From contig JBCCQY010000142.1 of NCBI GenBank assembly GCA_039208735.1, positions 1 through 24,849 on the forward strand: DNA of 24,849 nt. Reading direction: 5' to 3'. The stretch is from Myxococcota bacterium (GTDB lineage: Bacteria > Myxococcota_A > UBA796 > GCA-2862545). The position numbers and the translations under genes are program-made. Every line of letters begins with the position of its first letter. Position 1 is the first letter of the stretch. The notes under the pieces are model-generated. The model made no database searches, was not told where the DNA came from, and saw only the letters and a program-made list of their open reading frames with translations. Shown in pieces: positions 5,919 to 24,849 of this stretch.

Positions 5919-7781
5919 ATGTGGGCCTCTGTCTTTCTGGCAAGTTGTAGTGCACCCGTCGAGCCGGCGGACCTCTCGACGTTCTGCACCCCCGAAGCCA
6001 GTTCACTCCCTCCAGTGGAGGATGGGGCAGACCTTTCTCCCTATGACCCTGCGGTGTTCACGCAGCTCGGCCATGAGCCTCTCGTGTCCCTACCGAACCC
6101 CTCGGCCCCAAGGCGCCTATGGTCGTCTCGGGGGGCCTATGCCGTACGCGTGCTGGATCTCTTGCACAAGGGTTACGCGCAAGGGTGGCGCCATGTCCAC
6201 GTGGCGGTTGGGGTACCCTCCCCGAGGCCCGAGCGCTTCGCGTACCCGGCACTCGCCGAACTCTGGGCGGAGGTTCCGCAAATCGAGCGTCGCACGTGGC
6301 TCGACGAACGGTTCCTAGAGGCGGGGTGCGCTCCCCACGACGACGTCACGGTGTGTTCCAGTCTGGACGACGTCGCCACATGGGTGCAGACCTGTCGAAA
6401 AGCAACGTCCCCTCAAGCCGTCACGCTGTTGCAGTTTGAGCGGATCCTGGCCAATGGCAGCGCCGGATGGGTGGCCGACCTCCCCATCGATCTGCTCCGC
6501 GAACGGGACCGACCTCCCATCAGCGTTCCCGAGATGACCCACTGGCGGAACACCGAGTGGCAATCGGTGGTGCCTCACCTACGCGAAGCCGATGGTCCGG
6601 TGTGGCCCACATTGGGCCTGCGAAGCATGGCCAACTGCGAACGGGCTCGAGAAGCGTTCGCGCGCAACGGCGCGGCCTGGACTTCAGAGGCCGTCGAGCC
6701 CTACGTCGGCCAAATGGACCGAGCCCTGACCGATTTCGGAGGGCGGATGGGCGGTGGGCCAACGGTAGCCGTACAGACCGAAAACGAAAACCAATGGATC
6801 GGCACGCCGGAGGTCCAGCCCCACTTTTCACTGTCCGACGCTTCGTTCCGCTATGAAGCCACTCCGGTCGGATGTAGCGTCTATTCCCTGACCAACGCGG
6901 GGCCCCAGCGGGGGCAGTTGCGGTACGTGAATGGACCACAAACGGTTCGGGTGACGCGTGCGGGGTTGTTTGTCGCCAAAAAGACGGTGGATCTTTCCTG
7001 GTGGCCGTTTCGAACCGGTATTCCCCTGATCACCCTGCGACATACATTCGAGGCGGAAATCCGAGCGCACCTCGCGCGACGCATCAAACGCCTGCCGCCC
7101 GGTTCGGAGCGTTTGGCTGCGCTGAAGGACCTCGTCTTTCTTGGCGGATTCGATACAGCGGTGGAACTTGCGAAGTCCGTCCGCTTCACTCCCGACGAAC
7201 GCGCATACACCAAAAAGGGATACCCCGGCGATTACATCGTACCCGGACAAACCACAATCCTCGCTCCGCTCCCCCTCCAGGTCCGATTCAATACGGATGA
7301 GTTACCCGTCACGAAGCTACCGTTTGTTCATGGGCGAACCTGGCTACGGTATGGCCGAGTGACCCTCCCCGGTAAAGGCATCGGTCACCTTACACTCCGT
7401 TCATCCAGAGCCTCTTTTGAAGACGCGTTGCTTACGTTTGAACCAGATAAAGTCTTGGTCCTTGGCGACCACCATCCCTTTCCTCACGATATGGATGGTT
7501 CAAATACGGGATGTGTGGTCACGGACATCGAAATGGATCAACGCTGCCAAGAGGCGTCACGTCCGCCGGCGGTAGGAGACATCCTATCTGCGCATACGGT
7601 GTGCTACGGCCGTGATCAAGGCTGGTTTCCTGGAGTCCTGCGGTCCCGACATGACGACCGGACCTTGACGACGATTTTGATGGCTCCCGACGTAGTGCAG
7701 GTCACTTGGGACGGTGACCGCTGGCAAGCCTGGTTCTCCGAACGAAGCTGCGACGAGCGTTACGACACAGATTCGCTCTGA
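5919..7781 (+). CDS. Hypothetical lipoprotein, 620 aa
   Basis: Long ORF with N-terminus MWASVFLAS-C (lipobox LASC). No domain recognised. Confidence 0.65.
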   Translation: MWASVFLASCSAPVEPADLSTFCTPEASSLPPVEDGADLSPYDPAVFTQLGHEPLVSLPNPSAPRRLWSSRGAYAVRVLDLLHKGYAQGWRHVHVAVGVPSPRPERFAYPALAELWAEVPQIERRTWLDERFLEAGCAPHDDVTVCSSLDDVATWVQTCRKATSPQAVTLLQFERILANGSAGWVADLPIDLLRERDRPPISVPEMTHWRNTEWQSVVPHLREADGPVWPTLGLRSMANCERAREAFARNGAAWTSEAVEPYVGQMDRALTDFGGRMGGGPTVAVQTENENQWIGTPEVQPHFSLSDASFRYEATPVGCSVYSLTNAGPQRGQLRYVNGPQTVRVTRAGLFVAKKTVDLSWWPFRTGIPLITLRHTFEAEIRAHLARRIKRLPPGSERLAALKDLVFLGGFDTAVELAKSVRFTPDERAYTKKGYPGDYIVPGQTTILAPLPLQVRFNTDELPVTKLPFVHGRTWLRYGRVTLPGKGIGHLTLRSSRASFEDALLTFEPDKVLVLGDHHPFPHDMDGSNTGCVVTDIEMDQRCQEASRPPAVGDILSAHTVCYGRDQGWFPGVLRSRHDDRTLTTILMAPDVVQVTWDGDRWQAWFSERSCDERYDTDSL

Positions 7782-7945
7782 ATCGCCGAACCCACCTGAC
7801 AGCTTGCCAGTATCAAGCTTCCTGCCCCGCCGAGGCGGTTGCGGCTGCCATCGAATCCTTCCCCGTTCACGTCAGGTGACGCTGAAGTCATGGTCATCCA
7901 ACCGAAGCTCCCCTACCCTCCATTGGGTTGGTCATCGGAGACGCC

Positions 7946-9670
7946 ATGGCGGAGTGGGAACACGACTTTTTCTTGGTTCATGCAAGTCCAGATGCATTCT
8001 TTGCGAAGGAGCTGCACAACGTCCTGGTAGAGCGAGGAAAGCGGGTGTTTCTCGACCAAGAGGTCCTCCGGCCTGGAGAACCCTGGGTTGCCCACATCGA
8101 GGAAGCCCTAAACAAGACCGAGATTGTGGTGATCATCGAGTCCCGATATTCCGCCCACGGCCACTACAATCAAGAAGAAACGCTGATTGCCATCGGGCTG
8201 GCCCGAGGACAAAATCGGAAGTCCGCCGTGATTCCCGTGCTCCTCGATGGTGTGCCCCCGCCCTATGGACTCAAGGGGCTGCACGCTCTGCCAGCCCGAC
8301 GAAGTGCAAGTGAACCCGTCGCGGACAACCTCGTCTGGATCCATGAGGTCGCCCTTGCCGAACGCGAAGGGCGCGAGGTTCCCGAGCGACCCGAACCTCC
8401 CCCCAAGCCCCTCCCCATTCCCATCCGGAACCGCAACATCGCACTGGCCATTACGGGCATGGGTCTTTTCCTCGCGCTAGGCGCGCTCGTCTGGCCCCTG
8501 CTGGCTCCCTACCCCCTTAAGGAGGACGTTGACGGAAACCTCGAAGTGATCGTGGGCTCCAAACATATTCTCGAGAGCAACCTGCTCTGCGCGCTCCTCG
8601 CCATTGTCATCACAGAAGACGCCGACGGCTACACCGCACGTTGCACCTACGACACGGGCGGCGGCGAAACCGCACGGGATGCCCTGATGAAAGGGGACAT
8701 CCATATGTACCCCGACTATTCCGGCACGATCCTACACGAGTACACTGGCGACGGCCCTCGAGAGTGGCTGGATCAATTGAAACGCGCCGAATCGGCTCGG
8801 ACCCTCGATCTCAAAACGCTGAATCAACGGGCTGAAGAATACACCGCATTTCGGCAACGCGACACGAGGTGGCACCAGACCTTTCAACCCAAGGTTTGGC
8901 TCGAGTCGCTCGCCCTCTTTGGATTCGACAACGAGTGGGAATTGCTCTTGTCCCGGGCTTTTGTGTCATTACACCCCGATCTTGCTGCAGAAAAGGAGGC
9001 CCGAGGATTCATCTCACTTGGCACCCTGTTCGGTTCGCCAGCGTGGGCCCAACTCGATGTGTGCTCCTACCCCGAGTTCAAAGACCGCCAAGATGGCCTG
9101 CGTGGCCTAAAGGAGCGCGCACCATCGGGCGACGTTCGAACCGTCGACTTCGCCTCCCCGACCCGACGCTACTGTCGACTGCTTCCGCTTGACTACGATC
9201 GTGCGGAACCAGAGAACACACCCGCACCCTGGTGTGATTTGGTCGATGGCTACGGCACGGACCCAGAGACCGAACTGTTGGTCCACTCTGGCTGGGCGGT
9301 TGCCGTGCGCGACATTCCGATTCGGGGTCGTCACCACTGGCTGACCTACCACCCCGTCGCCCTGTCGCGCAGCGATTTCGTGAGTTCCCACCCAAAGGTC
9401 AAAGAGGCCCTCCAGCTCTTGCACCGCTGCATCAGCAAGGAGGAGATGATTCGGGCCCTCGTGGAACTGCAATACGGGGACGAAGGCGCCACGGAGGAGG
9501 ATGTCTTCAGCGCATGCGTCGATCCGTCACTCATCCACGTGGCGGTCGAGAAGCTGCGGGAAAATGACGAGCTGAAAACCAGGGTGGAGAAGTCCGCCCG
9601 ACGGATGCTGAAGCAGGTTCGTAACAAGGATCGTCAAGGAAACTGCGACCCTGCGCACGTCCCCATCTAG
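7946..9670 (+). CDS. TIR domain - transmembrane helix - glycine betaine/choline-type (OpuAC/OsmF) substrate-binding domain fusion
   Basis: ATG 7946 with GGAG SD. TIR_2 motifs: HDFFLVHASPD, RVFLDQEVLRPGEPW..IEEAL, YNQEE, VIPVLLD. Pro-rich linker, then RNRN and a TM helix at ~8438-8506. SBP motifs: VGSKHILES, AL.KGDIHMYPDYSGT, FGFDNEW, EFKDRQDGL, DGYGTD, TYHPVALSR..HPKVKEALQLL..ISKEEM. Confidence 0.9.
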   Translation: MAEWEHDFFLVHASPDAFFAKELHNVLVERGKRVFLDQEVLRPGEPWVAHIEEALNKTEIVVIIESRYSAHGHYNQEETLIAIGLARGQNRKSAVIPVLLDGVPPPYGLKGLHALPARRSASEPVADNLVWIHEVALAEREGREVPERPEPPPKPLPIPIRNRNIALAITGMGLFLALGALVWPLLAPYPLKEDVDGNLEVIVGSKHILESNLLCALLAIVITEDADGYTARCTYDTGGGETARDALMKGDIHMYPDYSGTILHEYTGDGPREWLDQLKRAESARTLDLKTLNQRAEEYTAFRQRDTRWHQTFQPKVWLESLALFGFDNEWELLLSRAFVSLHPDLAAEKEARGFISLGTLFGSPAWAQLDVCSYPEFKDRQDGLRGLKERAPSGDVRTVDFASPTRRYCRLLPLDYDRAEPENTPAPWCDLVDGYGTDPETELLVHSGWAVAVRDIPIRGRHHWLTYHPVALSRSDFVSSHPKVKEALQLLHRCISKEEMIRALVELQYGDEGATEEDVFSACVDPSLIHVAVEKLRENDELKTRVEKSARRMLKQVRNKDRQGNCDPAHVPI

Positions 9671-9723
9671 AGCGTCGGACGTGGGAACCCTCGAGTTTCG
9701 CACGCTGAGCGACGTTGTCGGGT

Positions 9724-10593
9724 TCAGTACCCATCTTGGACCGTAGCGCCCGATGGCATGCCAAACGCCGATCGTGACAACGCAGGCTGCGCTTGCACCT
9801 CGTTCAGGGTGATTTCCGTCACCTGCTCACCTGGTCCATCTTCCCACGAGAACGTGCGGTACTGTCGGGGCAACCGTAAGTCTTGGACGGTTTGTGCGCC
9901 ATCGTAGGCCATGATCTTCCAAGGGCTGTGTTGCCCCTCCTCGAAGAAGCCTGGGTAAGACACGATGTAGCGCAGGGCGATGACGCGCTTGGTTTCGTTG
10001 GCGATGTAGACGACGTAGGCATCGTCATCGGCATCACCGGTGCCATCGGCAAAACTCACCCGTACGAGGGTGCTCGCCTGTCCTTCGAAGGTGGCAGGCT
10101 CGTCGAGTTCGAGCTGAACCCCCGAATCGGCAAGCACGAACGGGATGCCTACGAAGTAGTACGGCGTGAGGGACCAGAATCGCGGATTGATGGGGAGGGA
10201 CGACCCCTCGGGCACCTGTTGCCATGCATGTTCGCCGTCCCAGCCGAATCGCACGTTGGGATCGGCGGCCAACGTATGGACTGCACGACTACGCCACAGG
10301 TCGACCACCTGGCGGGTGTCGCGGCGAGGCTTGCCATTCAGGGGTCGGTAGTCAAAGTGAAAGGCGAGCGGTGAAGCTCCAAACCAAGCATCCAGTCCTC
10401 CGGCGGCTTCGATGGCAGACCAAACCACCGTTCCGGCCTCGGTGCGGCGAAGGCGAGCCTCGGCTTGCCGAGTTCGCTCTTCGATCCATGCGGCTTCGGG
10501 CCGCGCCAAACCCTCCACGTCGCGGGTCGCCTCGGCCTCGTTTGCGGCGGGTGGCGAAACCTGAGTGCGACACGCGAGCAAAATCATCAGCAT
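9724..10593 (-). CDS. Lipoprotein, DUF6503-like
   Basis: Start moved to ATG 10593 (AGGAG SD; MLMILLA-C). AIEAAGGLDAW, YYFVGIPFVLAD.GV, GTGDADDDAYVVY and LRYIVSY match my recollection of DUF6503 proteins. Confidence 0.65.
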   Translation of the reverse strand: MLMILLACRTQVSPPAANEAEATRDVEGLARPEAAWIEERTRQAEARLRRTEAGTVVWSAIEAAGGLDAWFGASPLAFHFDYRPLNGKPRRDTRQVVDLWRSRAVHTLAADPNVRFGWDGEHAWQQVPEGSSLPINPRFWSLTPYYFVGIPFVLADSGVQLELDEPATFEGQASTLVRVSFADGTGDADDDAYVVYIANETKRVIALRYIVSYPGFFEEGQHSPWKIMAYDGAQTVQDLRLPRQYRTFSWEDGPGEQVTEITLNEVQAQPALSRSAFGMPSGATVQDGY

Positions 10594-10741: not shown

Positions 10742-12574
10742 ATGCAAGCTCCTCACACTCCAATCATTCAACGCTCCCACTCGCGATGCGTGGTCAACGG
10801 CCTCGACCCCGCCGGACGGCTGCCCGATCGGCTCACCGCACGCGAGCTTGCCGAACAGCGTGAGGGATTTGAAGCGGTCGTGGGCCCCGCGTTCGCCGCG
10901 GTCGAAGACCTTCAGGGGGTCGTGGAGCACTCGCGGTGCGCATTGCTCATCGCCAACCGTGAGGGCGTCATCGTGCATCGCACCGGGCGCAATCGCGAGG
11001 CGACAGCACTCGGACCAGCCATCGATGTGGGCTCGGTATGGACGGAAGACCTGGCCGGTACGAACGGAGTAGGCATCACCCTGTCCGAAGGGGTCCCGGT
11101 CACGGTGAGCGGCACCGAACACCTTCTCGAGACGCTCCATCCCTTCAGCTGCACGACCGTTCCGCTGCTCGATGCCCACCAACGCGTCTTTGGCGTCGTC
11201 GACCTCACGACATGGTCCGCGACCCAGCCCGACATTCCCTTTTTGGCGGACGCGCTGGAGCGTTTGGCCCATGACGTCCATTTTCGTTTGTTCGCGAAGG
11301 CCCATGCCAATGCGTTCCTCGTCGACCTGTCGCTTGAGCCGCCAACCGAGCTTGTGGCGCCGCGGGCCCTCGTGGCCGTGAAACAGGATGGCTCGATTGC
11401 GGGCTTGTCTCAACCCGCGATGCAGCTTCTTGCCTCGATCGCCCCGGAACCTGCCACGACCGCGCTGGGAAGTTTGCTCCGCGAACGATTTGGCGCGGAC
11501 CTCACCGCACTGATGGCATCGCCGGTCCAGGCGGTCAACCGAGCCATGTCCGTGTTTCTACGTATGGTTCGCGCCCCTCGGCAAACGCGCCGCCCTCGTC
11601 AACCTCTCAGCACGGTCCCAACGTCCACGACGCTTGAAGCGCTTGCGGGTCGTGACCCCGTGATGCAGCGTCATGTCGACCTGATCGAACGGGTGCGAGA
11701 CCGGAACCTGCCGCTCTTGCTCCTTGGGGAAACCGGAACGGGTAAGGACGCCCTCGCGAAGGCCATCCATGCGTCCGGGGCCCGGCGCGACAATCCGTTC
11801 GTCGCGGTGAATTGTGCCTCCCTACCCGAATCGCTGCTCGACAGCGAGCTATTCGGCTACGCGCCAGGCACCTTCACCGGAGGCACCAAAACAGGAAAGA
11901 TTGGCAAAATCGCCGCTGCTCACCGCGGGACGTTGTTCCTCGACGAGATTGGCGACATGCCGCTGCCCCTCCAAGGCCGACTGTTGCGGGTCCTCGCCGA
12001 GGGCGAAGTGACCCCACTCGGGACCGTCGAACCCATCGCGGTCGACCTGCAGGTGATCAGCGCAACCCACCACGACGTCGAGTCGCTGGTCGCGCAAGGA
12101 CGCTTTCGAGAAGACCTCTATTACCGGCTGAGCGGCGCTGCGTTCGAGCTGCCCGCGTTGCGTGACCGTGCCGACCTGCCGGACCTCGTTCACCGCATCC
12201 TGCACGCGGAGGGCCTCGGAAGCCCGGCCGTAGGCATCCATCCCGCGGCCATGGCGTGCCTCGTGGCCTATCCGTGGCCCGGCAACGTGCGCCAACTCCA
12301 ACAGGTGCTTCGCTTTGCGCTCGCGTGTGCAGGCGACGACGACATCAACGTGGCCCACCTGCCGGAGCGCGTCCAAAGCGCCTCCCGGCCCCCGAAACGG
12401 TCGCTCGACGAAGTTCGCGAAACCTCCGAGCGCGACGCCGTCCTCGCCGCCCTCGAGGCCTCGGCGTGGAACGTATCGGCAGCCGCCGTCCGACTCGGGG
12501 TCGCCCGCACAACGGTGCACCGCAAGATGCGGGCATTCGGGATTGCCAGACCGGGCCGCAGCTCCAAGCCCTGA
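10742..12574 (+). CDS. acoR: Sigma54-dependent transcriptional activator, AcoR type (GAF - AAA+ - Fis HTH)
   Basis: N-terminal SHSRC..GLDP and W.E..AGTNGVG (GAF). Walker A GETGTGKD, SELFGY..GTFTGG (GAFTGA variant), LFLDEIGDMP, FREDLYYRL, WPGNVRQL. C-terminal NVSAAAVRLGVARTTVHRKM. Lies directly upstream of acoA/B. Confidence 0.9.
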   Translation: MQAPHTPIIQRSHSRCVVNGLDPAGRLPDRLTARELAEQREGFEAVVGPAFAAVEDLQGVVEHSRCALLIANREGVIVHRTGRNREATALGPAIDVGSVWTEDLAGTNGVGITLSEGVPVTVSGTEHLLETLHPFSCTTVPLLDAHQRVFGVVDLTTWSATQPDIPFLADALERLAHDVHFRLFAKAHANAFLVDLSLEPPTELVAPRALVAVKQDGSIAGLSQPAMQLLASIAPEPATTALGSLLRERFGADLTALMASPVQAVNRAMSVFLRMVRAPRQTRRPRQPLSTVPTSTTLEALAGRDPVMQRHVDLIERVRDRNLPLLLLGETGTGKDALAKAIHASGARRDNPFVAVNCASLPESLLDSELFGYAPGTFTGGTKTGKIGKIAAAHRGTLFLDEIGDMPLPLQGRLLRVLAEGEVTPLGTVEPIAVDLQVISATHHDVESLVAQGRFREDLYYRLSGAAFELPALRDRADLPDLVHRILHAEGLGSPAVGIHPAAMACLVAYPWPGNVRQLQQVLRFALACAGDDDINVAHLPERVQSASRPPKRSLDEVRETSERDAVLAALEASAWNVSAAAVRLGVARTTVHRKMRAFGIARPGRSSKP

Positions 12575-12577
12575 TCG

Positions 12578-12595
12578 TGTTCCACCTTCGCGACA
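12578..12595. promoter_or_regulatory. Candidate upstream activator sequence for the AcoR-like protein (TGT-N12-ACA)
   Basis: TGTTCCACCTTCGCGACA lies about 75-90 bp upstream of the -24 element. Its dyad shape is typical of Fis-HTH enhancer-binding protein sites. Confidence 0.4.
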
Positions 12596-12666
12596 GTCGC
12601 TTGCACACGTGATGCAGGTTTGCTTCACCCGCGACGGGTGAATCGACCGAATCTCGATTCTCGGCT

Positions 12667-12683
12667 TTGGCATGCCGGTTGCT
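12667..12683 (+). promoter_or_regulatory. Sigma54 (-24/-12) promoter of the acoA operon
   Basis: TTGGCATGCCGGTTGCT: GG (12669-70) and GC (12681-82) are 10 nt apart, a near-consensus TGGCAC-N5-TTGC. Sits ~35 nt before ATG 12718 and next to a sigma54 activator gene. Confidence 0.9.
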
Positions 12684-12717
12684 TTCGCATCCAATGCACA
12701 CCGGACCGGGAGTGGGG

Positions 12718-13713
12718 ATGGAACCGACCCGCGAACAGAAGCTGTGGATGTACGAAACGATGGTGCTGAGTCGGCGCTACGAAGAGGCGATCGAGACGAT
12801 CTACCTCGAAGGAAAGACGCCGAGGTTCGATATGGCGGCAGGGCCCATCCCCGGGGAGATGCATCTGTCAAACGGTCAGGAACCCGTGGCCGTCGGGGTG
12901 TGTGCCCACCTCGAACCGACCGATGTCGTCACCGCTACCCATCGTCCTCATCACCAAGCCATTGCGAAGGGGGTTGACCTACGCCAGATGACCGCGGAGA
13001 TCTTTGGCAAGTCAACCGGGCTTAGCGGTGGTCGGGGCGGTCACATGCACCTGTTCGATCCGCGGGTGAACTTTGCCTGTTCCGGCATCATCGCCCAAGG
13101 CATGGGACCGGCGGTTGGGGCCGCATTGTCTAGAAAGATGCAAAACAAGCCGGGCGTTGCGGTCTCGTTTATCGGAGAAGGCGCTGTCAACCAAGGCGCC
13201 TTCCATGAAAGCATGAATCTTGCTGCACTTTGGCAGTTGCCCGTCATCGTGGTGGTGGAAGACAACGATTGGGGCATTTCGGTGTCTAAGAAGGACTCCA
13301 CCGCGGTAGCTCGCAACGACGTACGCGCCGCGGCCTACGGGATTCCCGGTCACTTCGTCGCTGACAACGATCCGATCGAGATCTTCCGCGTCGCTGGCGA
13401 GGCCATTCAACGCGCCCGAAACGGTGGAGGGCCGACGCTCATCGAAATCGAGACCTACCGTTTGGCCGGCCACTTCATGGGAGATGCGGAACAGTACCGA
13501 CCCAAGGGCGAAAAGGATGCCCTCTTTGCCAAGGATCCAATTCCGAAACTGCGGCAACAGTTGATGGCCCAAGGTGACCTCCACGAAGCGGAAGCCACCG
13601 CCATCGATGAGCGCGTCCAGGCCCGGGTGGACGATGCCATCCAGTTTGCCAGGACGAGCCCCGATCCGCAGCCCACCGATGCGCTGACCCGCGTGTTTCA
13701 CCCCCTCACCTAG
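12718..13713 (+). CDS. acoA: TPP-dependent dehydrogenase E1 alpha subunit (acetoin dehydrogenase-like)
   Basis: GEMHLSNGQE, HRPHH, GRGGHMH, TPP motif GEGAVNQGAFHESMN..EDN, TYRLAGHFMGD. Start ATG 12718 (GGGAG SD); the track TTG at 12667 lies inside the promoter. Confidence 0.9.
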   Translation: MEPTREQKLWMYETMVLSRRYEEAIETIYLEGKTPRFDMAAGPIPGEMHLSNGQEPVAVGVCAHLEPTDVVTATHRPHHQAIAKGVDLRQMTAEIFGKSTGLSGGRGGHMHLFDPRVNFACSGIIAQGMGPAVGAALSRKMQNKPGVAVSFIGEGAVNQGAFHESMNLAALWQLPVIVVVEDNDWGISVSKKDSTAVARNDVRAAAYGIPGHFVADNDPIEIFRVAGEAIQRARNGGGPTLIEIETYRLAGHFMGDAEQYRPKGEKDALFAKDPIPKLRQQLMAQGDLHEAEATAIDERVQARVDDAIQFARTSPDPQPTDALTRVFHPLT

Positions 13714-13731
13714 TCCCACGGAGGAGCCAAC

Positions 13732-14751
13732 GTGTCAGAACAAGGTCGAAAGCTTACGATTGCAAGAGCCATGGCTGAGGCCATCGCTCAAGAGATGCGA
13801 ATCGATCCCACGGTGTTCGTGATGGGAGAAGACATCGCGGCGCTCGGTGGCGTGTTTGGGAACACGCGCGGACTGCTTGAAGAATTCGGTGCAGAACGCA
13901 TTCGCGACACCCCGATTTCGGAAACCGCGTTCATGGGAGCGGCGACGGGAGCCGCGTCGGACGGCATGCGACCCATTGTGGAACTCATGTTCGTCGACTT
14001 CTTTGGGGTGTGTTTCGACGCCATCTACAACTCGATGGCCAAGAACACCTATTTTTCGGGCGGCACCGTGAAGGTGCCGGTGGTCCTCATGACCTCCACG
14101 GGAGGGGGGTACTCCGATGCAGGACAACACTCTCAGTGCCTGTACGGAACCTTTGCGCACCTGCCGGGCATGAAAGTGGTGTCCCCTTCGAACGCCTACG
14201 ACGCCAAAGGTCTCATGACCGCCGCGATCCGAGACGACAATCCCGTGGTGTTCATGTACCACAAGGGCCTGCAGGGCATGGGGTGGCTGGGCACCGAAGC
14301 GAGGTCCATCGTGACCGTGCCCGAGGAGTCCTTCACCCTCGAGATTGGCAAGGCCAAGGTGGTTCGCGAGGGCCGGGATGTCACAGTGGTGGGCCTGGCC
14401 ATGGGGGTGCACCATGCCCTTGACGCGGCCGAACAGCTGGCCGCACGAGGCATCGACGCCGAAGTCATTGACCTTCGCTCGCTCGTACCCCTCGATCGGC
14501 AGACGGTGATCCAATCCGTCCAGAAGACGGGGCGGCTGGTCGTGGTGGACGAGGACTACCACAGCTATGGTGTCAGCGGTGAAATCATCGCATCGGTGGC
14601 CGAACATCGTGACGGAATCCTGAAGTCCGCGCCGCGGCGGGTCACCTACCCCGATGTGCCCATTCCATTCGCCAGGGAACTCGAGCAATTCTGCCTTCCC
14701 AACGCCACCAAGATCGTGGCCGCCGTCGAAGCGATGGGAGCCCCTGCATGA
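13732..14751 (+). CDS. acoB: TPP-dependent dehydrogenase E1 beta subunit (acetoin dehydrogenase-like)
   Basis: GGAGGAG SD and GTG start. VFVMGEDI, RIRDTPISE, ELMFVDF, GQHSQ, EVIDLRSLVPLD, SVQKTGRLVVVDE. Confidence 0.92.
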   Translation: MSEQGRKLTIARAMAEAIAQEMRIDPTVFVMGEDIAALGGVFGNTRGLLEEFGAERIRDTPISETAFMGAATGAASDGMRPIVELMFVDFFGVCFDAIYNSMAKNTYFSGGTVKVPVVLMTSTGGGYSDAGQHSQCLYGTFAHLPGMKVVSPSNAYDAKGLMTAAIRDDNPVVFMYHKGLQGMGWLGTEARSIVTVPEESFTLEIGKAKVVREGRDVTVVGLAMGVHHALDAAEQLAARGIDAEVIDLRSLVPLDRQTVIQSVQKTGRLVVVDEDYHSYGVSGEIIASVAEHRDGILKSAPRRVTYPDVPIPFARELEQFCLPNATKIVAAVEAMGAPA

Positions 14752-14993
14752 ACACTCCTGTCGTCGTCCCCATGGACCTATGGGACGAAGAAGAGGCCGA
14801 GGGTGTGGTGACCGCCTGGATGTTCGACGATGGGGCGTCGGTGTCGAAGGGGGCCATCGTGGTCGAGATCATGGAAGGAAAGACCCAGCATGAGATCGTC
14901 GCGCCCGCCGACGGCATCCTCCGCATCGTTGCAAAAGCGGACGAGATCATCACCAAGGGCGCCACGCTCGGGACCATCGAAGCCCCCTCGTGA
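14748..14993 (+). CDS. Stand-alone lipoyl-domain carrier protein (81 aa)
   Basis: EGVVTAW..DG..V.KG..VVEIMEGKTQHEIVAPADGIL: a biotin/lipoyl attachment fold with Lys at the hairpin. ATGA overlap with the acoB stop. Confidence 0.88.
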   Translation: MNTPVVVPMDLWDEEEAEGVVTAWMFDDGASVSKGAIVVEIMEGKTQHEIVAPADGILRIVAKADEIITKGATLGTIEAPS

Positions 14994-15619
14994 TCGTCGC
15001 CTTCGCGGATCCTGCGGAGGCGTTCGAGATGGAGCGCCAGCAGTTTGGCGCTCCCAAGGGCCAGTGGGTGGTCTGGACAACGCCACAGTGCTTGGTTGTG
15101 CCTCGCTCGCTAGCGAATCGTGCAAACTTCGAGGCGGCGAGAACCGAACTGCGGCGAGCAGGCTGGCCCATCCACGTTCGAAGCAGTGGGGGGAGCGTCG
15201 TGCCTCTTGGACCCGGCATTATCAACGTGACCCTTGCGCGGCCGCCGTCGCCCGAAGTGGCTACGATCGCCATGGCCTACGAACATCTCTGCGCGCCCCT
15301 ACTGTCTTGGCTCGAAGAATTGGGAGAACCTGGAGCGTTTGGTGCTGTACCAGGAAGCTTCTGCGATGGTTCGCACAACGTCATCGTACGAGGCCTCAAG
15401 GTCGCGGGGACCGCACAGCGGCGAGGTAGAAGCGGAGTGCTGATGCATCTCAGCCTCACCGTAAACGCCGATCTTGAGGCGGGGGTTGAGGCCGTCCGGA
15501 AGTTCAATCGTGCCCTCAATCATCAGGAACACGTATCTGCCGGGTCGCACCTCAATCTGGCGGAGATCATCCCTTGCACCCCTGAAACGGTGGGTCGCGA
15601 ACTGCTGCTCCGGGTCTAG
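14990..15619 (+). CDS. Lipoate-protein ligase/lipoyl-transferase family protein (BPL/LplA/LipB catalytic domain only)
   Basis: VRSSGGSVVPLGPG, SFCDGSHNV, KVAGTAQRR. GTGA overlap with the lipoyl-domain stop. Confidence 0.85.
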   Translation: MIVAFADPAEAFEMERQQFGAPKGQWVVWTTPQCLVVPRSLANRANFEAARTELRRAGWPIHVRSSGGSVVPLGPGIINVTLARPPSPEVATIAMAYEHLCAPLLSWLEELGEPGAFGAVPGSFCDGSHNVIVRGLKVAGTAQRRGRSGVLMHLSLTVNADLEAGVEAVRKFNRALNHQEHVSAGSHLNLAEIIPCTPETVGRELLLRV

Positions 15620-17282: not shown

Positions 17283-18710
17283 TCATGGAATTTGCTGAAC
17301 AGCTCGGAAGAACTTCCACTTCAGGTTGAGACGTTCAAAGCGACCAAGTTGGTCCCCAACGGTTTCGCCAGGTCCCAGGAAAAGCGTCCCTCCCTTGGTT
17401 TGAAGACCAAAGGACAGTCGACGGACGACGGAACGCTGGGCCCCCGGGCGCAAGTACATCAAGAGGTTGCGACACACCACCAAATCTAAGTTTGAATAGG
17501 GCGGATCCGTTAGCACATCGTGAACCCCGAACGTAATCATATTTCGAACAAAGGTTCGGATCCGCCACTCTGTGGCCGTTCGCTCGAAGTACTTCGAGCG
17601 ATAGGCCTGTGGCACACTCTCGATGTCCGAATCAGTGAAACAACCCAGTTTCGCACGTTCGATGGCCCCCCGATCCGCATCGGTTGCGAACAGACGAAGG
17701 AGGGACCGGCCTCGGGAGAGGTTTCCCTCCGTCGCCTCGAGCAATGCGATGGCAAGGCTGTAGGCTTCCTGCCCCGTTGAACAACCCAGAATCCAGATCC
17801 GACGGGCTTGTTCGACCCTCCGATATTCAGGAAGCACGTGTTCACTCAACCAATGCCATGCCTCTTGGTCCCGAAAGAAATCCGTTGTTCCAGTCAGAAA
17901 ATCCAACGTGAGGGCAGACAGCTCTGCCGTGTCTTCTTGAAGACGACTCGCATATCGTTCAACCTTGGAAAGGTCCGCGAGCCTCATTCGCCGGTAAATC
18001 CTTCGGGCGAGCGGGCTCTCTTTGTACAAAGAGAATTTAATGCCTGAAACGTCAGCGACCGAGGCAATGATGCCTTGAACGGCTCGCTCCGACTCGTCGA
18101 CTGGCCTTGGCGCCAAGCCAACCATCTTCTGCACCAATGCGCCAGGACTGAGAACAAAGTCGGCCTCTCCGGCCTCGATCGTGCGCCGGGGCATTCCGGT
18201 GGATTCCGCGGTGAGAGGGTCCTGCACCAGTACAACGCCACCGTGACGGCGAATCCTGGTCACCCCACGGGTCTCTTCCCCGCCTCGGCCCGAAAGAACC
18301 ACCGCGATAGCGCGTTCGCCCTGGGCATCCGCGAGACACTGAAAGAACAAGTCCACGGGCTGGGGACTGCCCACCACCCGTTCGCTTAGCGTTAGTCGTT
18401 GTCCAATGAAGCGCACGCGCTTGCTGTGGGGCAGCACGTAGATGACTCCGGGCACCACCATTGTGCCGTCAACCGCATGGGTGACCTCAAGGAGCGTCCA
18501 CGTCTGAATCTCCTCCGCCGACGTCGGGCTCATCTTAGGGGAGGGGTTTTCAATGATGAAATAGGCTAACGTGCGTTCAATGGGCAGCCGACGAACGATG
18601 TCCTGCAGCGCTTTGATCTCACCCGCCGACGATGCGATCCCTACAATTGGAAAGGGTGTCGCAAATGAAACAGGACTGTTGCTACCGGGGGTCTCTGACA
18701 TTGTTGACAT
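17283..18710 (-). CDS. CheB-like (degenerate methylesterase) - CheR methyltransferase fusion
   Basis: CheB-like IVGIASSAGE, PVDLFFQCLA, AVVLSGRG, GGVVLVQDP..GMP. CheR motifs TDFFRD, IWILGCSTGQEAYSLAI, FATD, HDVLTDPPYSNLDLVVCRNLLMY, LFLGPGE. Start ATG 18710 or 18701. Confidence 0.88.
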   Translation of the reverse strand: MSTMSETPGSNSPVSFATPFPIVGIASSAGEIKALQDIVRRLPIERTLAYFIIENPSPKMSPTSAEEIQTWTLLEVTHAVDGTMVVPGVIYVLPHSKRVRFIGQRLTLSERVVGSPQPVDLFFQCLADAQGERAIAVVLSGRGGEETRGVTRIRRHGGVVLVQDPLTAESTGMPRRTIEAGEADFVLSPGALVQKMVGLAPRPVDESERAVQGIIASVADVSGIKFSLYKESPLARRIYRRMRLADLSKVERYASRLQEDTAELSALTLDFLTGTTDFFRDQEAWHWLSEHVLPEYRRVEQARRIWILGCSTGQEAYSLAIALLEATEGNLSRGRSLLRLFATDADRGAIERAKLGCFTDSDIESVPQAYRSKYFERTATEWRIRTFVRNMITFGVHDVLTDPPYSNLDLVVCRNLLMYLRPGAQRSVVRRLSFGLQTKGGTLFLGPGETVGDQLGRFERLNLKWKFFRAVQQIP

Positions 18711-18901
18711 GCTCCCATGGGAGTACGCCAGCAAAGTGGACAGTTGTGGTAGGCATGGTTCTCCTGGCTTTGTTTGTTGCGAGTAGACCACACTCGGCCC
18801 ACAACGGAAAGGAAAATTCCCAACTTTCGCCCAAGAGTGCCCTGGCCGCCACGACCCTGTGGGCGAGGACTGAAATAGGCGCGAGGCTTGGATTGAGGCG
18901 C

Positions 18902-22986: not shown

Positions 22987-23139
22987 TCCGATCAAGTGGA
23001 CAGATCGTAGTTGATGTCTCAGGTCGCCTGAGGCATTGGTGAGCGGGAGCCGAGAGCCTTCGAATTAAGAATTAATGCCGCAGTTTGCCTCAAACGACTG
23101 GGTATTCCTTTGCATCAAGGTCTAGCCCTTGGGGGAAAC

Positions 23140-24027
23140 GTGTTGCATTGGTGGAGTTCGGTGTGGACCCTCATGGCGTGCGCGCCGCCGGATGCCGAAG
23201 ATGTTCCAGTCGAAATCGAGGAGGCGACGGAGTTTTTGTTCGCGCATATCGACGATGAAGCGCCCGACACGCTCCAGTTGGTGATCGAACAGACGATCCT
23301 GCCGTATGTCCAGGCAAAACTCGACGCGGTGGTCGATCCATCCGACCCCTTCGATCCTGGCTACTTTACCGACCTTTCGCCGCTCACCGAGGCGAACCTC
23401 GGGTCCCTGTCGTTGCCTGAGGGCACGCTCGCCGAAGACCAGCGCGTTCCCGTCGCCCGCGCCTACCGCTCTCGCCACGCGACAGCATCCTTCCGTCAAC
23501 TCGCCGCCGTTGCGGATCGAACCTGCATCGAGCCCGAAACCACCCATTGGGCCCAGCGGGAGTACACGACCGACCCCGATTGCTACGCGAATGGCGAATG
23601 CACCTGGATCGCTGCGATTCAGCCAACGCTCAAGGTCAATCCCCTTGCTGCAATCTGGTACGACCAACACCTCGAGCAACGCAAACTGTCGATCGAGGTC
23701 GAGGACGAACCTTGGGACGTCATCGTCTCGAGAAGCTTCCTCACCGAATCCTGGGCTTCGAAAAACGGCAACAACCATTGGGACCAACTGTGGACCCTGG
23801 ATGTGGTGGTCGATCAGCCCGACGGCGCGGTCACTTGGAGCGCATACTGGAGTGCGATGCGGGTTCAGTGGCTAACCGATGGGATTTTGGCCACGAGCGT
23901 GCGGGCAGGCATGGTCGAGGCCAGCGCTTGGGCGGACCACTTCATTGCGCAAGGCACTCCGCACCCAGACTGCCCGCATGTCCGCGGCGCCCCCATGCCC
24001 GAACGTTGGCCCAACGGCTCGGAATGA
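23140..24027 (+). CDS. Hypothetical lipoprotein
   Basis: GTG 23140 after GGGGGA gives MLHWWSSVWTLMA-C (lipobox LMAC). Acidic body with several Cys; no domain recognised. Confidence 0.7.
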   Translation: MLHWWSSVWTLMACAPPDAEDVPVEIEEATEFLFAHIDDEAPDTLQLVIEQTILPYVQAKLDAVVDPSDPFDPGYFTDLSPLTEANLGSLSLPEGTLAEDQRVPVARAYRSRHATASFRQLAAVADRTCIEPETTHWAQREYTTDPDCYANGECTWIAAIQPTLKVNPLAAIWYDQHLEQRKLSIEVEDEPWDVIVSRSFLTESWASKNGNNHWDQLWTLDVVVDQPDGAVTWSAYWSAMRVQWLTDGILATSVRAGMVEASAWADHFIAQGTPHPDCPHVRGAPMPERWPNGSE

Positions 24028-24046: not shown

Positions 24047-24659
24047 CTACGTCTGAACGGGTGAGGCGCCCTCTGTCGAGGAGGAGCGCAGCCACCAGGC
24101 GTACAACGAAGGCACGACGACCAAGGTGAGGCCCGTCGCAGCGATGAGACCACTGATCATGGACCACGCCAACGGGGGCCACAACGGGCTGCTCGACAAG
24201 GCCAACGGCAACATGCCCGCGAGCGTGGTCGCCGTCGTGAGAAGGATCGGTCGGTAGCGCCGCTGGATGGCGTCGCTAACCGCCTCCTTGATGGAAGCTC
24301 CCTGGTCGCGACGAACCTCGACCACGTCGATCAACACAATCGCGTTGTTCACGACGACACCCGCCAAGGCCACCACGCCCAGTAGCGACATGAAGCCGAA
24401 CGGCTGGCCCGACAAAGCGAGGCCAGGCAGCACGCCCACCACCACGAGCGGCACGGTGGCAAGGACAATCCCTACACGTCGCAAGCTGTCGAAGGCCAGC
24501 AAGAGGAACAACAGCAGCAAGCCAAGGCCAACGGGCAGCGTTTGCAGCAACGCCACATTCGCCTCAGATGAACTTTCGCGCTCTCCCCCCACCACGACCC
24601 GAACGTCGTCGGGGACGGCACGCTGGAGTTCACCGAGGAACTGCGACGACAATGCGGCC
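24047..24659 (-). pseudogene. C-terminal fragment (last TM bundle) of an RND/AcrB-family efflux permease
   Basis: GGERESSSEAN, FDSLRRVGIVLATVPL, PFGFMSLLGVVALAGVVVNNAIVLID, RYRPILLTTATTLAGMLPLA, WPPLAWSMISGL, LTLVVVPSLY. Only ~200 aa of a normally ~1000-aa protein; the upstream sequence is unrelated. Confidence 0.85.
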
Positions 24660-24696
24660 CGGACTGCTTTCTCTCGGACTGCTTTCTCTCGGACTG
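24660..24696. repeat. 15-bp tandem repeat (about 2.5 copies) at a gene-fragment junction
   Basis: CGGACTGCTTTCTCT-CGGACTGCTTTCTCT-CGGACTG read directly. Confidence 0.9.
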
Positions 24697-24849
24697 TGTG
24701 TGAGCCTGCATTTTGTAGCGGCGATAGCTCAGTATCCAGACAATCAGTGCGATCGCTAGCCACAACAGTCGATTCCAAATCAGCAGTCCGCCCAGCGAGG
24801 GCATCAGCGTATTATGCTCAAACACTGTCCAGCTCAGCGTATTAGACTC
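24697..24849 (-). pseudogene. Internal fragment of an ABC-2 permease / M1-aminopeptidase-fusion type membrane protein, entering from the right edge
   Basis: Frame open from the edge: ESNTLSWTVFEHNTLMPSLGGLLIWNRLLWLAIALIVWILSYRRY matches the recalled WT..E.N...P...LL.NRLLWL motif of that family. After the tandem repeat it continues out of frame over AcrB sequence. Confidence 0.6.

Follow-up and report, generated by a model that had tools for sequence, protein, structure and literature searches.

Can a TIR enzyme inside a bacterium be governed by a small molecule outside it? The question is raised by a gene at positions 7946–9670 (+ strand) of contig JBCCQY010000142.1 (C142, 24,849 nt) from the Myxococcota bacterium assembly GCA_039208735.1 (G000; 9.4 Mb in 288 contigs, 92.7% complete), the entire contig being called the window hereafter. 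The gene encodes a protein of 574 amino acids, P0001, in which a TIR domain is followed by a single transmembrane (TM) helix and a betaine-type binding domain. An earlier reading of the DNA (the original prediction) had described it as a Toll-like receptor of external osmolytes. We find that P0001 is a real, rare, and conserved fusion, and that its binding domain, judged from sequence comparisons, apparently belongs to an undescribed sensory subfamily that left ATP-binding cassette (ABC) transport. We consider it somewhat probable that P0001 is a one-chain, single-pass inner-membrane receptor, in which an external carboxylated betaine would control the clustering of an NAD-using TIR. In TIR-rich bacteria, proteins with the layout TIR, TM helix, and a further domain (TIR-TM-X) are present by the dozen, and for the X of P0001 solved structures indicate the class of ligand that suits its pocket; small-molecule gating of bacterial TIR enzymes across the membrane becomes a testable question. 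If this reading is true, a TIR enzyme would be switched from outside, whereas known bacterial TIR enzymes respond to cues inside the cell.

Translation confirmed a single, stop-free open reading frame (ORF), with a ribosome-binding-site-like GGAG at 7937–7940 and the ATG 5 nt downstream; all features of the gene given below lie on the same + strand. A scan of the locus for promoters and terminators gave no signal over chance level, and no RNA dataset is listed as containing this DNA. At the N-terminus, Pfam assigns TIR_2 to residues 8–120 (7967–8305; 62.1 bits against a cut-off of 28, E = 9.3e-17), a domain predicted to be cytoplasmic. Glu78 (codon 8177–8179), which had been placed at the catalytic position in the original prediction, indeed aligns with the Glu of PdTIR (WPQKE), TcpB (WPARE), and Roq1 (WCLEE), which we take to be the catalytic residue of these proteins, and Glu occupies the same column in all six TIRs found fused to a binding domain of this subfamily. 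Given Glu78 and the TIR_2 profile, the TIR of P0001 is probably of the enzyme type and is predicted to cleave NAD+. A Pro-rich linker (residues 146–159, 8381–8422) leads to an RNRN basic patch and the membrane helix, which together cover residues 161–187 (8426–8506); the sole hydrophobic stretch of the protein lies at residues 165–183 (Kyte–Doolittle 2.17), and the helix was modeled at residues 163–182. These elements were confirmed as claimed, and the three Lys/Arg residues before the helix versus one after it would place the TIR inside by the positive-inside rule. The remainder (residues 199–563, 8540–9634) is a complete binding domain of the AfProX/EgtUC type (cluster F-III) with insertions, predicted to be periplasmic. 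When the whole protein was searched by Atlas features, no match scored above 0.75, and the matches of a whole-protein fold search were all taken up by the binding domain.

One might suspect that assembly wrongly joined a TIR gene to a binding-protein gene, given a genome bin of 288 contigs with 6% contamination and a contig that is GC-poor relative to the genome (0.61 vs 0.639). P0001 is nonetheless not such a chimera, because a genome of the same genus (G001) encodes a full-length orthologue, P0002 (545 amino acids), which shares 32% identity with P0001 across 96% of its length, has the same two Pfam domains, and keeps both the Glu at the catalytic position and the betaine pocket, while the Pro-rich linker is missing. 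A search of other genomes for the architecture found four more TIR fusions within the binding-domain family besides P0002. The tetranucleotide profile of the contig is normal, and a Logan contig of run X1, possibly the window's own source and hence not independent, covers positions 6500–10470 without any difference or joint; runs X2 and X3 did not cover the locus. A chimeric origin is thus largely refuted and in our view extremely improbable.

The original prediction had also claimed a full substrate-binding domain of the OpuAC/OsmF type. Pfam matches OpuAC only at residues 201–286 (36.4 bits against a cut-off of 21.2, E = 5.6e-9), but this partial match understates the domain, because the fold model shows it in full. 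Indeed, the AlphaFold2 model of residues 194–574 (predicted local distance difference test score (pLDDT) 89.4; predicted template modeling score 0.91) could be superposed on EgtUC (7txk) over 271 of 272 residues (Z 29.3, root-mean-square deviation 2.2) and on AfProX (1sw1) over 270 of 270 residues (Z 27.9, root-mean-square deviation 2.5). Lactococcal OpuAC and E. coli ProX, which are of the tryptophan type, scored much lower (Z 14–18, versus 26–29 for the AfProX/EgtUC/OpuCC type). The claim of a full domain therefore stands, while its type is that of the tyrosine-cage proteins.

According to the available part of PMC9732360, the EgtUC cage consists of F293, Y341, Y419, and Y443 with N339 at its base, and the carboxylate is held by K242, T296, and R379, with E375 and D381 in addition; in OpuBC and OpuCC, backbone contacts take the place of the lysine (same source). 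By profile and family alignments, as opposed to superposed coordinates, K242, F293, T296, N339, and Y341 correspond to K206, Y258, T261, N329, and W331 of P0001, and E375, R379, D381, Y419, and Y443 to E377, R381, D383, Y436, and Y468 (span 8561–9349). The four-aromatic cage with its Asn base and the Lys/Thr/Arg carboxylate site are thus all kept, with one Tyr-to-Trp change (W331), and the pocket appears intact for predicted binding of a trimethylammonium (or sulfonium) carboxylate. We regard a betaine-type ligand as fairly probable, with a carboxylated betaine as the best guess from the pocket. Among the ligands named in the original prediction (betaine, choline, or carnitine), choline is a poor candidate, because the carboxylate-binding Lys206, Thr261, and Arg381 are kept.

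In comparison with the characterized cluster F-III binders (A. fulgidus ProX, S. pneumoniae EgtUC, and B. subtilis OpuBC/OpuCC), P0001 has the same fold over the whole domain, the aromatic cage with the Asn base, and the carboxylate site, but it lacks a permease and a lipoprotein anchor, is joined to a TIR through a helix, and has about 100 extra residues. It also differs in the pocket itself, where Trp331 replaces one cage Tyr and Ile208 occupies the position of Gly244 in EgtU and of Phe in AfProX, the cage of which has four Tyr; neither residue resembles AfProX or EgtUC. An ergothioneine binder of the EgtU kind is ruled out by Ile208 and Tyr258 in place of the invariant, EgtU-defining Gly244 and Phe293. 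Nucleotide sensing as in SAVED or STING was likewise dropped, given the intact betaine pocket and a domain that lies outside in most members of the subfamily.

How far does this domain stand apart from transport? Comparison of the outside domain with 1.84 billion representatives by phmmer yielded 79 matches, 54 of which were scanned with Pfam, and in a first tree of 67 rows the transporter-type rows split from the rest. Two profiles, one for each side, sorted 217 of 220 sequences into 40 of the subfamily and 177 ordinary relatives, with the profile-building rows sorted partly by construction. In an 83-row tree, the 38 subfamily rows (two fragments omitted), all orphan or fusion domains, formed one side of a branch with 95% support in the Shimodaira–Hasegawa-like approximate likelihood ratio test, opposite 45 transporter-type rows (30 of them drawn at random). 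Less two duplicates and two fragments, the 40 rows represent 36 distinct members, which is a lower bound on the family size.

Two differences are independent of the sorting: a fused permease is found in none of the 40 subfamily sequences versus 101 of the 177 ordinary relatives, and a lipobox-like motif in none of the 40 versus 44 of 71. Furthermore, the pocket columns lead conservation among the 36 members (Y258 in 36, R381 and Y468 in 35 each, K206 and T261 in 34 each, and N329 in 33; the median column reaches 28%), a TDP motif is present in 28 of 36 subfamily but 2 of 45 ordinary sequences, and the C-terminal tail is longer where comparable (71–106 vs 60–65 residues). A sensor role apart from transport thus seems quite likely to us. 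Among named sequences, those most closely related to the binding domain are labelled Myxococcota, and database labels name the members ABC substrate-binding proteins; an unrecognized sensory subfamily is apparently hidden beneath labels such as "glycine betaine ABC substrate-binding protein."

Further searches, among them shallow word-index searches for homologues, added few members. One homologue search yielded two proteins among 7999 scored candidates, another gave five matches at E ≤ 1e-10 while missing most rows of its own alignment, and a third brought three more subfamily members among the 120 listed of its 232 matches. Subfamily genes were present at two of 67 loci in a scan of genome contigs. 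A scan of viral contigs for the motif DGYxTDP returned no stretches, and the 26 stretches found in metagenomes comprised one already-known subfamily gene, two ordinary transporters, and otherwise unrelated sequences. Across the phylum, 95 of 401 genomes had a match, and the 29 other loci that were read proved to be ordinary transporters; a tblastn search of plasmids gave six weak records, three of them labelled as ordinary betaine binding proteins.

The binding domain could still be imagined to serve transport, as a membrane-tethered protein that feeds a distant ABC permease or a BCCT carrier, with the TIR as a regulatory appendage. Its fold and pocket are of the transporter type, the database labels agree, and G000 has a BCCT carrier. 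The permease is nonetheless missing from all 40 members, and some members have no export signal at all; as the original prediction had noted, no ABC permease or ATPase occurs among the 20 window ORFs scanned with Pfam, so that P0001 is unlike the osmoprotectant ABC transporters (ProU/Opu/OsmU) in having neither a fused nor a neighboring permease or ATPase. Five queries found no osmoprotectant-type permease in G000 (E < 1e-3), a genome in which the permease could be unassembled, and a permease profile gave two weak matches of 22–31 bits among its 14 ABC permease genes. G001 contains no second OpuAC gene, no match to a permease fusion, and no osmoprotectant-type permease, and G505 and G506 show weak permease matches of 24–28% identity only, versus 42% over the full length in the positive control, G004. 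No cognate permease was thus found in the four carrier genomes, and none adjoins the five subfamily loci that were read. We therefore hold a transport role to be quite improbable. The only other OpuAC-family gene of G000 (C64:42584–43594, − strand; locus L001) is itself a subfamily member with one helix, the binding domain, and no effector; no transporter adjoins it, and its product could be a co-receptor.

If the domain is a sensor, what does it report to? TIR_2 stands at the N-terminus of six of the 36 distinct members (P0001, P0002, P0018, P0023, P0026, and P0072). The other N-termini are DUF4062 (one member), alpha/beta-hydrolase (two, plus two probable truncations), EAD or EAD-like domains (four), and Rho_N (one); 20 members have membrane anchors only, with no recognizable inside effector. 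A single clade for the six TIR-fused binding domains was rejected (p = 7e-84 in the approximately unbiased test), the group having been defined by Pfam after earlier trees had been seen, and the TIRs of the six fusions have at least two origins on starred branches. Recurrent assembly of the same layout argues for coupling between the two halves, and the 20 effector-less members suggest that a fused effector is not required.

After P0002, the four closest relatives of P0001 are P0203 and P0004–P0006, all of which carry an EAD or EAD-like domain. P0203 has an EAD1 above the cut-off together with membrane helices; P0004 is EAD7/EAD1-like by Atlas features (0.93), and P0004–P0006 have neither a Pfam EAD match nor a helix. 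EADs couple effectors through homotypic contact, as stated in the available text of PMC7159879. The TIR of P0001 groups loosely (80–86% support) with TIRs from the same order, five of which lie in ORFs that also match an EAD-like profile. Because the closest relatives have the death-like EAD adaptor instead of a TIR and the same order also has EAD-TIR proteins, P0001 looks as if a sensor and an effector, brought together by EADs elsewhere, had been fused directly. A C215–C233 disulfide was also considered and not used, since other cysteines are kept in TM-less forms as well; C233 is present in the three TM-bearing close relatives and not in the three TM-less ones.

Among the other members, P0072 (L092:5380–8133, a Gammaproteobacteria bin) combines a TIR, a helix, and two binding domains, one of the subfamily and the second an SBP_bac_3, in a single chain. 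A Pseudomonadota bin with 11 TIR hits has two subfamily genes in tandem (P0021 and P0025, L096:5788–8176), the closest relative of which is the TIR-bearing P0018. The GC content at third codon positions of the P0056 gene (L174:123–1262) is 0.34 versus 0.73 in its neighbors, suggesting recent acquisition.

Such a protein might also be a mere by-product of the shuffling of domains where TIRs abound, with both halves functional but uncoupled or the TIR serving as no more than an interaction tag. Within a single genus, TIR_2 hits number 30 in G000, where they have varied partners, 57 in G001, 20 in G002, 5 in G003, and 0 in G004, which has ordinary betaine transporters; the four carrier genomes are all TIR-rich (30, 57, 8, and 11 hits). 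G000 encodes at least three other TIR-TM-X proteins, and the occurrence of the fusion is patchy with no common gene context. Yet the fusion has been maintained between two species at 32% identity with both sites intact, and the same layout arose repeatedly; we accordingly judge shuffling without coupling improbable.

Hydropathy and charge bias support the predicted placement of the binding domain outside and the TIR inside: more Lys/Arg residues precede than follow the last helix in 20 of 27 TM-bearing members, including all five TIR fusions with a called helix. A homodimer model of residues 160–574 scored 0.49, versus 0.00 for the best of three controls, a mark attained by 20 of 30 solved homodimers and one of 23 single chains; the runs share at least 55% of contacts with pLDDT of at least 77. 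The predicted interface is centered on strand 398–404 (9137–9157), with F402 at the two-fold, and further includes H207, residues 245–249 and 371–380, and the insert 527–540 (9524–9565), namely both lobes beside the cleft. The model supports pairing without showing it, as the fold resembles many solved structures and model memory is possible.

The same dimer was predicted without a ligand, which would also suit a different role: the outside domain might be a scaffold or surface-binding module, dimerizing constitutively or binding a methylated amine that a protein, glycan, or invader displays, and the trigger of the TIR would be this contact, proteolysis, or damage to the envelope, not a free osmolyte. 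A scaffold would fit the large insertions and the conserved cysteines of the six closest relatives, the deviating Ile208 and Trp331, and the many effector-less members. The carboxylate-binding K206/T261/R381 and the whole cage are, however, as in small-molecule binders, and the model best matches closed, ligand-bound structures, with a possible training bias in that match. We find a scaffold unlikely, if less so than the alternatives above.

The one-chain receptor would work in four steps. A periplasmic betaine-type molecule (glycine betaine, proline betaine, or a larger analogue, but probably neither choline nor, in the EgtU manner, ergothioneine) would close the two lobes. Closure may then alter the pairing of the outside domains, because both lobes contribute to the predicted dimer face, which lies where the cleft opens. 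The tethered TIRs would in turn be clustered or re-spaced, and bacterial TIRs must oligomerize to cleave NAD+. The output might be a signal of the ADP-ribose type or a loss of NAD+, as part of the large TIR/EAD conflict network of the cell, and the ligand might switch the TIR either on or off. This receptor reading, already put forward in the original prediction, has gained support from the orthologue, the transporter-free subfamily with its intact pocket, the repeated TIR fusion, and the passing dimer model, and we lean toward ligand control of the TIR. Lysis of neighbors or prey as the trigger is doubtful. For the family as a whole, it is possible, though we hold this only tentatively, that its members are immune receptors of the bacterial cell surface, in which a betaine fold was removed from ABC transport as a danger sensor and, in several independent events, was fused to TIR NADases, death-like adaptors, and further conflict effectors, with osmolytes from lysing neighbors or prey triggering the TIR across the membrane.

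Several observations weigh against such a receptor. The confident dimer contacts do not include the membrane helices, and the insert that makes up part of the predicted interface is limited to the six closest relatives. A one-chain receptor is not obligatory in the family, because 20 of 36 members lack a recognizable inside effector and the three EAD-like fusions and P0044 lack the helix. The branch leading to the clade of P0001 is long and drew a long-branch warning, and the root is not fixed, which leaves the unity of the subfamily uncertain. The gene is rare (two of 182 genomes of the class), and a marine metagenome is the single dataset listed as containing this DNA; because betaines are common in marine settings, a simple lethal switch seems unlikely. 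The incomplete G000 may conceal a permease, and it has a BCCT carrier. No neighborhood is conserved across the five loci, none of which has a match to any other gene of the window, and no defense-system partner was found, with PADLOC and NCBIfam giving weak generic TIR matches far below their cut-offs. A defense role is thus inferred from the domain partners and not from the neighborhood.

Among known systems, ligand-gated TIR effectors (TIR-STING and TIR-SAVED of CBASS, and the Pycsar TIR) and Thoeris ThsB are activated by ligand-driven assembly, and they similarly join an enzyme-type TIR with Glu to a small-molecule binding domain. Their ligand is, however, a nucleotide made inside by a neighboring cyclase, whereas in P0001 the membrane separates the TIR from a sensor with a betaine pocket. 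A component of CBASS, Pycsar, or Thoeris was rejected: the Pfam scan found no cyclase or ThsA in the window, P0001 has no nucleotide-sensing domain, and the PADLOC/NCBIfam matches concern the TIR only. Animal Toll-like receptors offer an analogy only, in that an outside sensor, one helix, and an inside TIR are shared. Their TIR is a scaffold and not an enzyme, the chain runs in the opposite direction, and the ectodomain is N-terminal and made of leucine-rich repeats (LRRs). The "Toll-like" description thus holds for the layout, but not for the TIR of P0001, which is N-terminal and of the enzyme type.

Another parallel is found in the EAD-coupled and EACC1/EACC2 conflict systems of multicellular bacteria, which share with P0001 the order of inside effector, TM helix, and outside sensor; the available text of PMC7159879 (Kaur et al. 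2020) notes caspase proteins in which TM helices are followed by a periplasmic binding protein (PBP) domain, that of PMC8195603 (Kaur et al. 2021) notes TM + CHASE2 forms, and the close relative P0203 carries EAD1. P0001 differs in its TIR effector, its betaine-type sensor fold, and its solitary gene, with no EAD on the protein and no EAD/EACC-type core partner (EACC, VMAP, MoxR, or GAP1) seen beside it; EAD-like domains occur on about 10 other ORFs of G000. NspS-MbaA of Vibrio cholerae, as described in the available part of PMC10914755, gives a precedent for the danger-signal idea, as a metabolite that abounds in the cytoplasm and is released by lysis is detected there by a periplasmic binding protein, which signals via a membrane protein. 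That system has two proteins, a polyamine ligand, and a cyclic di-GMP output (PMC10914755), and we claim no homology. The novelty asserted in the original prediction must accordingly be narrowed: the layout of effector, TM helix, and PBP is already in print (PMC7159879, available text), while the version with a TIR and this betaine-type subfamily is apparently undescribed. A literature search restricted to papers outside subscription found none joining a TIR to an OpuAC/betaine-type binding domain or describing the subfamily. "OpuAC" and "betaine" are absent from the searched parts of PMC7159879 and PMC8195603, the architecture source data of which could list the fusion.

As for the rest of the window, the ORF directly upstream of the P0001 gene and on the same strand (5919–7781, +) encodes 620 amino acids with a lipobox-like start; it has no Pfam, PADLOC, or NCBIfam match and no paralogue, and is absent from the G001 locus. 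Farther upstream lie a Trans_reg_C domain with a weak STAND/AAA match, cut by the contig end (3–1142, −), and a 524-amino-acid protein with LRR-like repeats, no Pfam match, and one paralogue on C196 (3790–5364, −). Downstream, positions 10742–15619 (+) encode a GAF/sigma-54 activator, E1 alpha and beta, a small lipoyl-carrier-like ORF, and a lipoate ligase, presumably an acetoin-dehydrogenase-like operon, and are followed by a CheB-CheR fusion (17283–18791, −) and by an ORF without Pfam match that has four paralogues in the genome at 33–67% identity (23110–24027, +). At the contig end, an AcrB-family C-terminal fragment (24047–24849, −) overlaps another open frame and looks broken or misjoined.

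Elsewhere in G000, a TIR is fused to a ParA-like P-loop domain recognized by eye (C271:191–1588, +), and a 2026 preprint reportedly deals with ParA in immunity; C206:2606–3946 (+) has a TIR and then what we take to be a SAVED-like region. Fusions of pentapeptide repeats to a TIR are expanded in this genome (C111, C120, C18, C4, and C104; Pfam was checked at C104). Finally, C19:74944–76518 (+) encodes an EAD-like domain, a helix, an outside region that is presumably CHASE2-like, and further helices, which is the same layout of adaptor, TM helix, and sensor.

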